From contig JBAMMA010000006.1 of the NCBI GenBank assembly GCA_039794005.1, forward strand, positions 27,679 through 91,678: DNA of 64,000 nucleotides, in the 5' to 3' direction. The notes beneath the pieces are model-generated. The model made no database searches. It saw nothing but the letters and a program-made list of their open reading frames with translations, and was not told the origin of the DNA. A program made the translations under genes and the position numbers. Each line of letters begins with the position of its first letter. Position 1 is the first letter of the stretch. This document shows positions 45,393 to 48,147 of the stretch, one piece after another. Source of the stretch: Thermoplasmata archaeon. Lineage in GTDB: Archaea; Thermoplasmatota; Thermoplasmata; Thermoplasmatales; ARK-15.

Positions 45393-47354
45393 CTAATACC
45401 TAATTTTTACCTCTTCGTAAGCATCCCTGAGCAATTTTAAATAATAAGGTATTGAATAGTCCACATTTTGATAACTAGATGTGGCCTTTAACGGCCTTTC
45501 AGAATATATTATGTATTTTACGTGCTCGGATGGATATAATAATAAATCCTTTCTATAATATTCATCTAATATTTGCTTTGTGGGCGTATTTACCAAATAT
45601 TCCCAGGGATATTTGGTAATTCTTTTTTCCAAAAGCAATTTCTCTGGGTTTACATCCCTATTTTCCAGCATTTCCTTGTACTTGAAAAATAATTTATTTA
45701 GATCAATCTTTTCAACATCTTCTTTATTTTTAACATTTTTCAATAATTCCAATGCCTCCGTTTGAAATTCTTTAATAAATTCTGGTGTATCATGCCTCCT
45801 AAGCATAATACCACGAATTTTATATTCCCCATTTATATTATAGGCAATATATCTTCCAGGGGAACCTAAATATTGTTCGCCCTTTAATGGGATTATTTTC
45901 ATCCAATAATATTTTCCAGATAGTTCAATGGGCAGTTCCGTTTCTTTTTCTATTTCTTCAACAATGCTTTCTTCCACAAAACCTGATAACCATAAGGAAT
46001 CTACTATTATTGATATTACATCATACCCATGCTTTTCAACAATGTCTTTTGTCTTTATTATGATATCCCTGGCATATGCATTTATGCTTTCATGTACTTC
46101 AATGCTTCCAAATTTAGCATTCCTGTACCCTGTATATCCAAATGAAGTCACAAGCATCCATTTAAATGCCTTGTCTATTCCCTCTAAATCTTTGATTGTT
46201 TTCTTCAATTTTTTTATCTTTATCCTAAGATCGAGGAAATCTTCAAGCGCATATGACAAAAAACCCCTCTTTTCCATGCTAACTTTATACCCTATCTCGG
46301 GCACAATTTCACATCTTTCACATTCTGAATTGACAGTCTCCAATGAAAGGTTTTTCTTTACTATTATTGATGGATACATTGAGGTAAAATCAAGCTCAGA
46401 TACCTCCCAGTATATTCCAGGAGATACCTGATATACTAGGCCTCCTTTGTCAGATTTTATTAACATTTCGAGGCTCTTTTCCTTTTCTGGCCTCGATTTA
46501 TGGTATGGAACGGCAATACCGTTTCTAAGCGCCTTTGAAACTTCCATGCTTGAAATTAATGTTCCCGGTGTAGACCTAGCTGCATATGATGGATCTAAGG
46601 AGGATATTGATGAGGATGCCAGAACACCAAAAATTCCACCTTCAGAATATATAAAGCTAGTTTTTGGATCTATAAGAGATCTTCCCCTTGGAACATAGGT
46701 CAATTCCTTGTGATATTTATAACCATAGGAAAAGTATTCCTTTTGTCTTATTAAATTCCATCCTGGAATTCTTCCTATGTAAAATTCAACATTTCTATTT
46801 TTTGAATCATAGATCCAATTTGGCAAAATTGTATCTATATCATCCATTATCAAAATATCTGGGTCTTCTTCCATCACAATATCCATAATTTTCAAATAAT
46901 CTCTCAAGGGGATGTATTTACCGTTGTATTCATATCCCGTGCTATCTCTTTTAAATTTTATGATTTTTAATCCAGAAAAATTTGGTATTCCCCCTTTATA
47001 ATCATAATAATTCAATTTATTTTCGGACAAATATCTCAATGATAACCTTATATCCACATTGTATAAATCTACCAGATAATAGTTAAAATATTTTTCAACC
47101 AAAGATGATATTTTGAAGAACGATTGTGGAACTGTTTTTATATAATATCCATCGATTTCACCGAACACCGTCTTAATTCTTTTTTTCCCCTTTTCTACGA
47201 TTCCAGGGAATTCTATTTCAAATATCCTTTCAGAAATATTTCTTTCATCGGATATTAAAAATTCCGGATAATATTTCTCTCTCTTTATTATTATCTTATC
47301 ATTTTCTTTAAAGAATAATATTGCATCTCTTAATATCTCTATTGAGACGAGCAT
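45393..47354 (-). CDS. short family-B DNA polymerase, PolB2-like (degenerate exonuclease motifs, divergent motifs B and C)
   Basis: [11 protein letters not shown] (YxGG region). Motif A [12 protein letters not shown] (D322). Motif B variant [19 protein letters not shown]. Motif C position reads IIVDS (D452, nt 45999-46001) instead of [22 protein letters not shown] matches the KxKG..RRD block. No DIE Exo I motif, and the Exo II region reads [17 protein letters not shown]. Confidence 0.7.
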   Translation of the reverse strand: [653 protein letters not shown]

Positions 47355-47584
47355 TTTATTTCAATCTTTTCAATTTCTTTCTCCATTTCTATCAATATTG
47401 ATAAAAAAACTGCCTCAAGAGGGTCTTCAAGAGAATATGTGGATTCTGCAGAATACCTTTTTGCCTTTTCTATGATCCTTTCAATGTATTTTTTATCCTC
47501 TGAATGCATGGCCTTCATAAACGACTGCCATCTATCAATTATATTGTTTATTTCCTGCCTCATCGTTGAAACATTCCTACCCAT
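47339..47584 (-). CDS. hypothetical small helical protein (81 aa), operonic with the PolB2-like gene
   Basis: Overlaps the polymerase start by 16 nt. Helix-favouring sequence (QEINNIIDRWQSFMKAMHSEDKKYIERIIEKAKRY). Confidence 0.45.
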   Translation of the reverse strand: MGRNVSTMRQEINNIIDRWQSFMKAMHSEDKKYIERIIEKAKRYSAESTYSLEDPLEAVFLSILIEMEKEIEKIEIKCSSQ

Positions 47585-47589
47585 TCACA

Positions 47590-48147
47590 TCACCCATTTT
47601 GATTATTGAAGTCAAATAAAGATAGCTGACCTGGTATATAATAGAAGTGATAATTCTTTTCACCATATTTTATGTTGTATCCATAACTATGCTTTTCAGT
47701 GATTATGTATGGAAATTTGGATGTTATGGAAAATGGGTATGATGAAAAGAACAATGTTATGGAATTATTTTCACTTGTATATTCCACGAGACCATTAACA
47801 ATTCCAGATATTAATGCATACTTTTCATCGTTCCTGAGGTCAGAATATGATATGGGGTCAAAATAATACATTAAAAGGTCATATTTATTTTTCAATTCCT
47901 TTATAATTTCAATGATCTGATAAAATGTGAAACCCCTTCTAATTTTTATTTTTATATCATTTCTGAATTTTTTAATGATGTTATATGAATGCCTTAAATT
48001 CAGAGGTGAATAATTCCCCAATATTATGTAATCTGACATGCCAAAAATTTGTGATTCAACCAGGAGCCTATCCGAGGGAAAAATCTCAGGATTTTTTATT
48101 ATGTACATCTTTCCATAATCAAATATGTCCAAAAGATTTAAAATCAT
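47590..48147 (-). CDS. hypothetical protein; possible P-loop-less RecA/RadB/KaiC-like fold with C-terminal PIP-like motif
   Basis: 185 aa. The order of hydrophobic strands and helices parallels RadB (LLDIFDYGKMYIIKN.. where RadB has LD.LLGGG....V.G, but no GKT). DLLMYYFDPIS sits at the Walker-B-like position. Ends GQLSLFDFNNQNG. Confidence 0.3.
   Translation of the reverse strand: MILNLLDIFDYGKMYIIKNPEIFPSDRLLVESQIFGMSDYIILGNYSPLNLRHSYNIIKKFRNDIKIKIRRGFTFYQIIEIIKELKNKYDLLMYYFDPISYSDLRNDEKYALISGIVNGLVEYTSENNSITLFFSSYPFSITSKFPYIITEKHSYGYNIKYGEKNYHFYYIPGQLSLFDFNNQNG
47608..47628 (-). other. PIP-box-like motif QLSLFDF five residues from the C-terminus of the 185-aa protein
   Basis: Fits Q-x-x-L-x-x-F, but the eighth position is N rather than aromatic. 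Confidence 0.35.

Follow-up and report, generated by a model that had tools for sequence, protein, structure and literature searches.

A probable iRadA-PPB2-PolB2 operon with an altered polymerase motif C in an uncultured Thermoplasmata archaeon

A 64,000-nucleotide stretch of DNA from an uncultured Thermoplasmata archaeon (the window) carries a minus-strand trio of genes for proteins of 185, 81 and 653 amino acids, in transcription order. With a probability of about 80%, we read this locus as an iRadA-PPB2-PolB2 operon of the published arrangement '1a', which would encode an error-prone polymerase complex for damage tolerance. Operons of PolB2, arCOG07300 and an inactivated RadA were reported in 2013-2014 (Makarova et al. 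2014, PMC4104785). In 2025, Timinskas et al. named the partners PPB2 and iRadA, modelled a 1:1:3 heteropentamer with AlphaFold, described its clamp-binding motifs and called it the "PolB2 mutasome" (PMC11791011). The initial annotation had regarded the operon and its partners as uncharacterised as far as known; since the arrangement was described in 2013-14 and modelled in 2025, the operon is real but not new. The proposal of a multi-subunit specialised polymerase, made in the same annotation, coincides with the current published prediction (PMC11791011), and according to a 2026 review this holoenzyme prediction still awaits verification (PMC13324097). The small new point is the replacement of the His-Gly of polymerase motif C in this Thermoplasmata clade, which the initial annotation had passed over.

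The gene for the 185-aa protein (47590..48147, minus strand) is the first of the operon and is separated by 5 nt from the PPB2 gene (47339..47584, minus strand), which overlaps the start of the polymerase gene (45393..47354, minus strand) by 16 nt; the initial annotation had described this packing and its coordinates correctly. The tight spacing, together with a Shine-Dalgarno-like GGTGA upstream of PPB2, suggests that the three genes are co-translated. The AT-rich 41-nt spacer in front of the 185-aa gene (48148..48188, minus strand) contains a TATA-like TTTTAAAT (48173-48180, minus strand) at positions -33 to -26 from the ATG, and is possibly the operon promoter. This reading is kept tentative, because the genome has a GC content of 32% and such strings are common. 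The operon is chromosomal, and its host is probably thermophilic. The neighbours are housekeeping genes (GluRS, AlaRS, M20 amidohydrolase, TGT and M50 peptidase), synteny extends over the whole neighbourhood in relatives with a PolB2 of only 68% identity, and the GC content across the region is even (0.31-0.35). Unlike many published operons, the one in the window has no orc1/cdc6, SRAP or DUF72 genes nearby.

The initial annotation had proposed to check whether the partners are conserved together with PolB2 genes, and they are: the iRadA-PPB2-PolB2 order with both partners was found in 48 of 80 related loci, and one partner alone stood beside PolB2 in a further 11. Among the related loci whose upstream sequence was long enough, PolB2 had no adjoining partners in 13. 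Partner order and spacing were kept across Thermoplasmata, Methanomicrobia and Archaeoglobi. All three genes of the operon are under strong purifying selection, with dN/dS values of 0.06-0.08 for the 185-aa gene, 0.10 for PPB2 and 0.09 for PolB2, as for the neighbouring housekeeping M20 gene. Because of this conservation in related genomes and the low dN/dS values, we conclude that the three-gene arrangement is not due to chance.

The 653-aa polymerase was scored against the NCBIfam models and reached 493 bits with NF004416, slightly below the curated cutoff of 516 bits, and 259 bits with NF004418, while the models for PolB1, PolB3 and Pol II gave at most 129 bits. The best PolB2 model thus leads any other family-B model by more than 360 bits. 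The published haloarchaeal PolB2 matched NF004418 at 812 bits, and homologs from Methanoregula and Archaeoglobales matched NF004416 at 834-969 bits. Furthermore, the consensus of our homolog set from motif B to motif C is that of the published PolB2 table. By model scores rather than by a tree of PolB1, PolB2 and PolB3, we therefore assign the polymerase to the archaeal PolB2 group, as the initial annotation had done. Archaeal PolB structures matched the AlphaFold2 (AF2) model of the protein (pLDDT 91) along its entire length (TM 0.76-0.78, Foldseek), and in this model the polymerase has the complete family-B fold.

The sequence landmarks named in the initial annotation were all found, namely KGG at 303-305, DFTSMYPS from D322, VTSFGYTGY from 402 and IVDS from 450. 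The block given there as 'KxKG..RRD' is also present, but it reads K512-I-R-G...R519-R-H-D522. The D(K/R) motif (D302-K303; 46446..46451, minus strand) lies directly before G304-G305; D302 is invariant, and residue 303 is Arg or Lys in 88 of 88 homologs. In the published model, this motif contacts the arm of PPB2 (PMC11791011). Motif A (46368..46391, minus strand) aligns to KOD LDFRSLYPS and places D322, invariant in 88 homologs, on D404. The motif B variant (residues 398-410; 46125..46163, minus strand) aligns to KOD KILANSYYGYYGY, and K398, W399 and F405 to Y410 are invariant across the PolB2 set. In the alignment of homologs, motif C (45996..46013, minus strand) reads S448-I-I-V-D452-S, whereas the family has H-G-I-V-D-(C/S); I450-V451-D452 fall on KOD D540-T541-D542. 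It follows from the KOD alignment that both metal-ligand Asp residues are kept, D322 and D452 corresponding to D404 and D542 as had been claimed for this pair, and that the first Asp of the DTD is lost. Motif C with IVD is a common variant in published PolB2. R501-Y502, equivalent to the KxY motif, is intact and invariant, and the same holds for K398, D322, D452 and the motifs of the fingers and thumb.

Residues 1-258 of the polymerase gave no significant alignment to PolB3 structures. Within this part, residues 162-175 align weakly with KOD EKDPDVLITYNGDN, and the weak alignment sets Leu177 at the position of the KOD catalytic Asp215; no conserved acids were found at columns equivalent to Exo I or Exo II in the polymerase family alignment. 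The exonuclease domain thus appears to have kept its fold and lost its catalytic residues, with the residue mapping coming from a weak alignment. The earlier statement that Exo motifs are not recognisable stands for the catalytic residues but not for residues 162-175, which can be aligned to KOD. In comparison with the PolB3 enzymes of KOD, 9°N, Tgo and Pfu, the window polymerase has the same overall fold (within the TM range given above) and agrees in motif A and in the second motif C Asp. It differs in being about 120 residues shorter, in lacking the Exo I/II catalytic residues, in its motifs B and C and in the absence of the C-terminal PCNA box, no motif of this kind being present at the PolB2 C-terminus; sequence similarity is limited to residues 259-617.

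The 81-aa protein starts with the arm MGRNVSTMR (47558..47584, minus strand), in which M1, G2, R3, N4 and R9 are invariant in the PPB2 alignment. Published PPB2 proteins, about 80-90 aa long and encoded beside PolB2, begin with a conserved 'MGRT' arm that carries Arg3 and Arg9; this arm is predicted to insert itself between iRadA and PolB2, close to the DNA (PMC11791011). Their three-helix fold is predicted to form a trimer. The window protein itself had no match in the local copies of Pfam or NCBIfam, and PF26485 was precomputed on its homologs at 94%, 77% and 54-56% identity. A profile built from the window protein retrieved 57 PPB2-like ORFs in related loci, where the placement next to PolB2 is the same; the intact ones have MGR(S/T/N), R9 and a DDPLEA motif in common. 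From its homologs and motifs, we identify the 81-aa protein as PPB2 (arCOG07300, Pfam PF26485, DUF8156). PPB2 also weakly matches phrog_30126 (E=0.0013), a family of viral proteins with no assigned function.

The 185-aa protein is far more divergent. Word-indexed and exhaustive profile searches among 1.8 billion representatives retrieved only 2-3 relatives, and the local copies of Pfam and NCBIfam gave no match. A local iterative profile tied the protein to 52 ORFs, nearly all of which, in other archaea, lie immediately upstream of PPB2-PolB2, and on this profile we place it in the family that occupies the iRadA position in PolB2 operons. In an alignment of 40 family members, G44, N45, R71, F73, T74, Q77 and D97 were nearly invariant. 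Walker A and B motifs are missing from the protein, as is GxxxxGK[ST], and no Lys is conserved in the family; in this 185-aa protein, the ATPase motifs and the RadA N-terminal domain are absent. Near its C-terminus it carries the sequence QLSLFDF (residues 174-180; 47608..47628, minus strand). Of the 40 family members, 39 share Q174 and 39 share L177, and at position 180 Phe occurs more often than any other residue. Published iRadA clamp motifs, which many but not all iRadA proteins have at the C-terminus, are of like form (e.g. QLRLDHFG), and we regard this PCNA-box-like sequence as a putative PCNA-binding motif. The iRadA proteins of PolB2 operons are distributed over arCOG07763, arCOG04294 and arCOG08101.

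The RadA ancestry of iRadA was proposed from HHpred and AlphaFold (PMC4104785, PMC11791011). A PDB profile search with the 185-aa protein retrieved no RadA, and Pfam scans of the 40 family members gave no Rad51, RecA or KaiC domain. When the family was compared by hhalign with a five-sequence RadA/Rad51/Dmc1 profile, of whose references only S. solfataricus RadA was checked against the PDB (705 bits to 2bke), the probabilities were 0.04% and 0.14%; a search of the family with a RadA HMM yielded E > 0.9. An AF2 model from a three-sequence alignment was unusable (pLDDT 32). The 185-aa protein is extremely divergent by these comparisons, and we could not confirm its RadA ancestry. In a forced RadA alignment of the family, the order of elements was RadA-like, without significance.

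The His-Gly of motif C is present in 85 of 88 aligned homologs. Ser-Ile or Ser-Met takes its place only in the window sequence, in P0001 (94% identical) and in P0002 (~68% identical), and neither SIIVDS nor SMIVDS occurs in a part of the published PolB2 table with 308 HG-type entries. Feng et al. 2022 called the motif C His (H-G-I-x-D) invariant and proposed that it takes over from the absent first Asp. The window polymerase has further changes at fully conserved positions (P310 to V and G609 to S); in total it departs at 12 of 122 conserved columns, and 7 of the 87 other aligned homologs depart at more. Since phylogeny and operon context decide membership of the PolB2 group, we regard Ser-Ile as a clade-specific deviation that does not exclude the protein from the group. 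Nevertheless, catalysis is less certain here than in Dpo2, because the His-Gly is gone and the His was proposed to stand in for the missing Asp.

This deviation is the main ground for a different reading, in which the complex exists but the polymerase of this clade is non-catalytic and has a scaffolding or regulatory role at origins or stalled forks. It would revive the earlier view of an 'inactivated PolB2' put forward by Makarova et al., who suggested regulatory roles in 2014 (PMC4104785), and it draws on the replacement of the first Asp and the His-Gly of motif C alike, on the compensation of Asp by His proposed by Feng et al. and on the changes of P310 and G609. However, Sulfolobus/Saccharolobus islandicus Dpo2 polymerises robustly although it also lacks the first Asp (PMC8764526), the metal ligands D322 and D452, K398, R501-Y502 and the motifs of the fingers and thumb have stayed intact and invariant, and the number of deviating columns is exceeded in other homologs. 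We therefore consider a non-catalytic polymerase unlikely. A pseudogene or a decaying polymerase was ruled out by the dN/dS of 0.09 for PolB2.

Archaeal mobile elements often carry family-B polymerases. A polymerase from a casposon, pPolB plasmid or virus, with the small ORFs as genes of the element, would fit this habit and the weak match of PPB2 to phrog_30126, but it is very improbable given the housekeeping flanks, the synteny in relatives, the uniform GC content and the scores of the polymerase with PolB2 models. Searches found neither cas1 nor an integrase or defence-system protein, PADLOC gave no matches, and PHROGs matched the polymerase only with generic polymerase families; an origin from a mobile element or a defence system was rejected on these results and on the syntenic housekeeping context. 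Even less credible is the view that the small ORFs just happen to neighbour the polymerase gene or are spurious in an AT-rich genome. Neither small protein has a local Pfam or NCBIfam match and the 185-aa protein is almost without detectable homologs, as this view would have it, but dN/dS values of 0.06-0.10, an order and spacing conserved over three lineages and family-specific motifs refute it.

Several observations count against the damage-tolerance operon, our preferred reading, too: the three-protein complex is a published prediction with no experimental demonstration to date (PMC13324097), the RadA ancestry of the 185-aa protein is unconfirmed (hhalign below 0.2%, no PDB or Pfam matches, unusable AF2 model), motif C lacks the His-Gly of most homologs, orc1/cdc6, SRAP and DUF72 are missing from the surroundings, and PolB2 stands without adjoining partners in the 13 related loci mentioned above. 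On the other side, the locus shares with the PolB2 mutasome the same three genes in the same order, an IVD-type motif C, D(K/R)GG, the MGR arm with Arg3 and Arg9, a clamp-box-like motif on iRadA rather than on the polymerase, and a decayed exonuclease active site. It differs in having SIIVD instead of HGIVD, in the very divergent protein at the iRadA position and in the neighbouring genes just listed.

In Sulfolobales, PolB2 is the chief mutagenic polymerase induced by damage, and to our knowledge damage induction via Orc1-2 and TFB3 is known only there. Dpo2 is the only member of the PolB2 group that has been studied both biochemically and genetically (Feng et al. 2020, 2022), and a polymerase lacking 3'-5' exonuclease and extending mismatches and lesions is known only for Dpo2 of S. 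islandicus and S. solfataricus (PMC8764526). The window polymerase and S. islandicus Dpo2 both belong to the PolB2 group, have lost the first Asp of motif C (IID in Dpo2, IVD here) and the proofreading residues, and have the same spacing of 148 residues from the DK motif to motif C; Dpo2 differs in being crenarchaeal, distant in sequence and in having kept the motif C His. Timinskas et al. drew an analogy to the Pol V mutasome of E. coli (UmuD'2C-RecA-ATP), which is likewise a multi-subunit translesion polymerase combining a RecA-family protein and small subunits (PMC11791011). The likeness is architectural only: Pol V has a Y-family catalytic subunit, an active RecA ATPase donated from a filament, and unrelated accessory proteins.

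Based on the published AlphaFold models and on S. islandicus Dpo2, the predicted complex would unite a PPB2 trimer with single copies of PolB2 and iRadA, and the C-terminal tail of iRadA would dock it on PCNA. After another enzyme has inserted a nucleotide, PolB2 would extend mismatched or lesion-opposed primer ends, and the outcome would be an error-prone tolerance of damage.

Conceptually, the locus adds nothing to the published picture. It supplies a compact, thermophile-derived set of three proteins for reconstitution and a very divergent iRadA that still bears a PCNA-box-like tail. This clade swapped His-Gly for Ser-Ile or Ser-Met, yet all three operon genes stay under strong purifying selection. 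Possibly, and we put this forward tentatively, either the His is dispensable for PolB2 chemistry or the function of the complex needs no polymerase activity. SIIVD is thus a natural variant of motif C that is suited to testing the proposed replacement of Asp by His.

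The three minus-strand genes were found at exactly the coordinates proposed in the initial annotation: the gene for the 185-aa protein in the iRadA position (47590-48147), the gene for the 81-aa PPB2 (47339-47584) and the gene for the 653-aa PolB2 (45393-47354). The TGA stop codon of the first gene (47592-47590) is followed by 5 nt and then by the ATG of the 81-aa gene, immediately 5' of which lies the Shine-Dalgarno-like GGTGA, and the 81-aa gene overlaps with the polymerase ATG by 16 nt; the gap and the overlap are as had been described. The motifs quoted for the polymerase were also located (KGG at residues 303-305, DFTSMYPS from D322, VTSFGYTGY from 402 and IVDS from 450), except for the 'KxKG..RRD' block, whose true reading is KIRG...RRHD.

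The 653-aa protein matched the Pfam family DNA_pol_B (E=9e-22), and its top NCBIfam models were NF004416 (493 bits) and NF004418 (259 bits); all PolB1/PolB3-type 'DNA polymerase I' and Pol II models scored ≤129 bits. Since the published haloarchaeal PolB2 WP_171908190.1 (supplement of PMC11791011) matches NF004418 with 812 bits and homologs from Methanoregula and Archaeoglobales match NF004416 with 834-969 bits, these are the models of the PolB2 group, and the window polymerase, judged by its sequence, groups with them. In addition, the motif B-to-C consensus of our 88 aligned PolB2 homologs (27 residues...HGIVDCLWV) is, variable positions aside, that of the Methanomicrobiales entries listed in the published PolB2 table, and the invariant PolB2 motif D(K/R)GG is present as D302-K303-G-G. 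The model scores and the motif consensus thus support the PolB2 membership claimed earlier.

Alignment to KOD polymerase placed D322 of motif A opposite D404, K398 opposite the motif B lysine, and S448-I-I-V-D452 opposite Y538-S-D540-T-D542. The metal-ligand Asp pair (equivalent to RB69 D411 and D623) is therefore retained, as had been proposed, whereas Ile takes the place of the first Asp in DTD. The same loss of the first Asp with retention of the second is found in S. islandicus Dpo2 (IID) and in many published PolB2 (IVD). Residues 1-258 gave no significant alignment to any solved polymerase; a weak 14-residue match to KOD EKDPDVLITYNGDN sets Leu177 opposite the catalytic Asp215, and no conserved acids occur at the Exo I-equivalent columns of the homolog set. 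The AF2 model built from the 88-sequence alignment was confident (pLDDT 91, pTM 0.86) and covered the whole chain at TM 0.76-0.78 against the 9°N, KOD and Tgo polymerases, and its listed PDB matches were all Thermococcales-type PolB or engineered variants (50/50). The predicted fold is complete, although these three polymerases are ~120 residues longer. The only segment modelled with pLDDT <50, residues 207-215 (46710-46736), holds the invariant S209-Y210-G211; such an invariant but unstructured loop suggests a candidate partner or DNA contact site, distinct from the published iRadA contact, the DK-proximal loop of PolB2.

Homologs of the 81-aa protein at 94%, 77% and 54-56% identity carry precomputed matches to PF26485, still named 'DUF8156' in newer Pfam, a database label that lags behind the literature on PPB2. 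Its N-terminus is MGRNVSTMR, with M1, G2, R3, N4 and R9 invariant among relatives, and a profile built from it detected 57 ORFs in the 80 related loci bearing such PolB2 genes; the intact ones share an MGR(S/T/N) start, Arg9 and a common DDPLEA motif. By these sequence features, we assign the protein to the PPB2/arCOG07300 family. The 'MGRT' arm of PPB2, which contains Arg3 and Arg9, has a predicted position beside DNA, inserted between PolB2 and iRadA (PMC11791011). A weak full-length match to phrog_30126, a viral family of unassigned function, was also observed (E=0.0013).

The 185-aa protein is extremely divergent: a word-indexed search returned two homologs, as did exhaustive profile searching across 1.8 billion representatives, and one homolog was common to both, giving three distinct relatives. 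Within the 80 related loci, an iterative profile that started with 8 ORFs reached 52; almost all of these lie directly upstream of PPB2-PolB2, in genomes of Thermoplasmata, Methanoregula, Methanothrix and Archaeoglobus. Their alignment is nearly invariant at G44-N45, R71, F73-T74, Q77, D97 and the C-terminal Q174-x-x-L177, and contains no P-loop. The C-terminus of the window's 185-aa protein, ...GQLSLFDFNNQNG, has the form of PCNA-binding motifs, which are commoner on iRadA than on PolB2 (for example, QLRLDHFG; Timinskas et al., PMC11791011); no motif of this type was present in the polymerase C-terminus. Descent of this family from RadA found no support here: RadA was absent from the PDB matches of the family in a profile search, a Pfam scan revealed no Rad51, RecA or KaiC domain, HMM searches gave no signal, and hhalign against RadA gave a probability of <0.2%. 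A forced full-length hhalign, which was not significant, set NFxVRRxFTxxQ on RadA NxxYARAxNxxHQ, with hhhhEHDP falling at the Walker B strand; the AF2 model (pLDDT 32) was unusable. Since the RadA likeness of arCOG07763, one of these families, is detectable by HHpred only (Makarova et al., PMC4104785), these negative results are expected and not contradictory.

The conservation of the partners with PolB2 genes, on which the earlier reading depended, was found in other genomes: both occur in the order iRadA-PPB2-PolB2 at 48 of the 80 related loci and one only at 11, while at 8 the upstream sequence was too short to decide. At the remaining 13 loci, from Methanoregula and Methanotrichaceae (L011, L016, L024, L027, L030, L044, L046, L051, L055, L059, L062, L069 and L079), neither PPB2 nor iRadA was detected in the ~1.8 kb upstream of PolB2 or the ~1.5 kb downstream of it, and therefore the operon is not universal; the partners may be encoded elsewhere, or these PolB2 may be second copies. 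One Methanoregulaceae locus (L072; about 1-3430 and 5730-7640) has an additional iRadA-PPB2 pair that lies on the opposite strand and appears degraded, as well as a PPB2 copy without MGR and a split polymerase ORF; this could reflect duplication followed by decay or an assembly error.

The neighbourhood is fully syntenic in the two closest relatives (94% and ~68% PolB2 identity), in the order CoA-transferase, TGT, M50 peptidase, AlaRS, 182-aa membrane protein, iRadA-PPB2-PolB2 and M20 amidohydrolase. Compared with the 94% relative, dN/dS was 0.06 for iRadA, 0.10 for PPB2, 0.09 for PolB2 and 0.08 for the neighbouring M20 gene; all three operon genes are working genes. The 182-aa ORF (48189-48737, minus strand), 41 nt upstream of the operon, has a hydrophobic N-terminal segment and no family match; it keeps its position in both relatives and evolves faster (dN/dS 0.22; 53% identity to the ~68% relative).

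GC content is uniform (~32%) over the window, which carries housekeeping genes and reverse gyrase of an uncultured Thermoplasmata lineage. Nothing at the locus pointed to a mobile element or a defence system, and the published operon-associated genes orc1/cdc6, SRAP and DUF72 were absent from the neighbouring ORFs scanned within ~10 kb. The 1222-aa reverse gyrase (27032-30700, minus strand) has helicase, Toprim and topoisomerase IA domains and the reverse-gyrase zinc finger; its presence implies a putatively thermophilic lifestyle for this 32%-GC lineage. At 21335-25441, an 844-aa HerA/TrwB-like ATPase adjoins a 525-aa helicase, encoded on the opposite strand, whose C-terminus weakly matches XPB/Rad25; the two may act as a pair in DNA repair or DNA translocation. 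A 759-aa ORF (5503-7782, plus strand) matched no Pfam family at E ≤ 1e-5.

Here we establish what the polymerase and PPB2 are, the motifs, and the co-conservation of and purifying selection on the three genes, confirming the observation of a PolB2 operon with two partners and its biological reading. The operon iRadA-PPB2-PolB2 is, however, already known: the association of PolB2, arCOG07300 and inactivated RadA has been in the literature since 2013-2014 (PMC4104785), and a 2025 study, which covered Thermoplasmata operons of this arrangement, 1a, gave the partners the names PPB2 and iRadA and modelled a PolB2:iRadA:PPB2(3) heteropentamer bearing clamp motifs (PMC11791011). According to a 2026 review, the complex still awaits experimental verification (PMC13324097). 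S. islandicus Dpo2 has been shown to respond to damage by induction and to be needed for induced mutagenesis; this exonuclease-free enzyme extends mismatched or lesion-opposed termini well. Going by this literature, PolB2, iRadA and PPB2 would assemble in a 1:1:3 ratio, the QLSLFDF tail of iRadA would provide the tether to PCNA, and the polymerase would extend aberrant primer termini in damage tolerance.

What sets the window protein apart is motif C. In 85 of the 88 homologs it reads H-G-I-V-D-(C/S), and S-I/M-I-V-D occurs only in the window protein (S-I-I-V-D-S, residues 448-453, 45996-46013, minus strand) and its two closest relatives; the variant was not found among the listed entries of the published PolB2 table (308 HG-type). 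Two more changes affect otherwise fully conserved PolB2 columns (Val for P310 and Ser for G609). The motif C His has been proposed to replace the missing Asp (Feng et al.). Because the PolB2 gene is still under purifying selection, either this His is dispensable, or the complex of the window clade does something other than synthesis.
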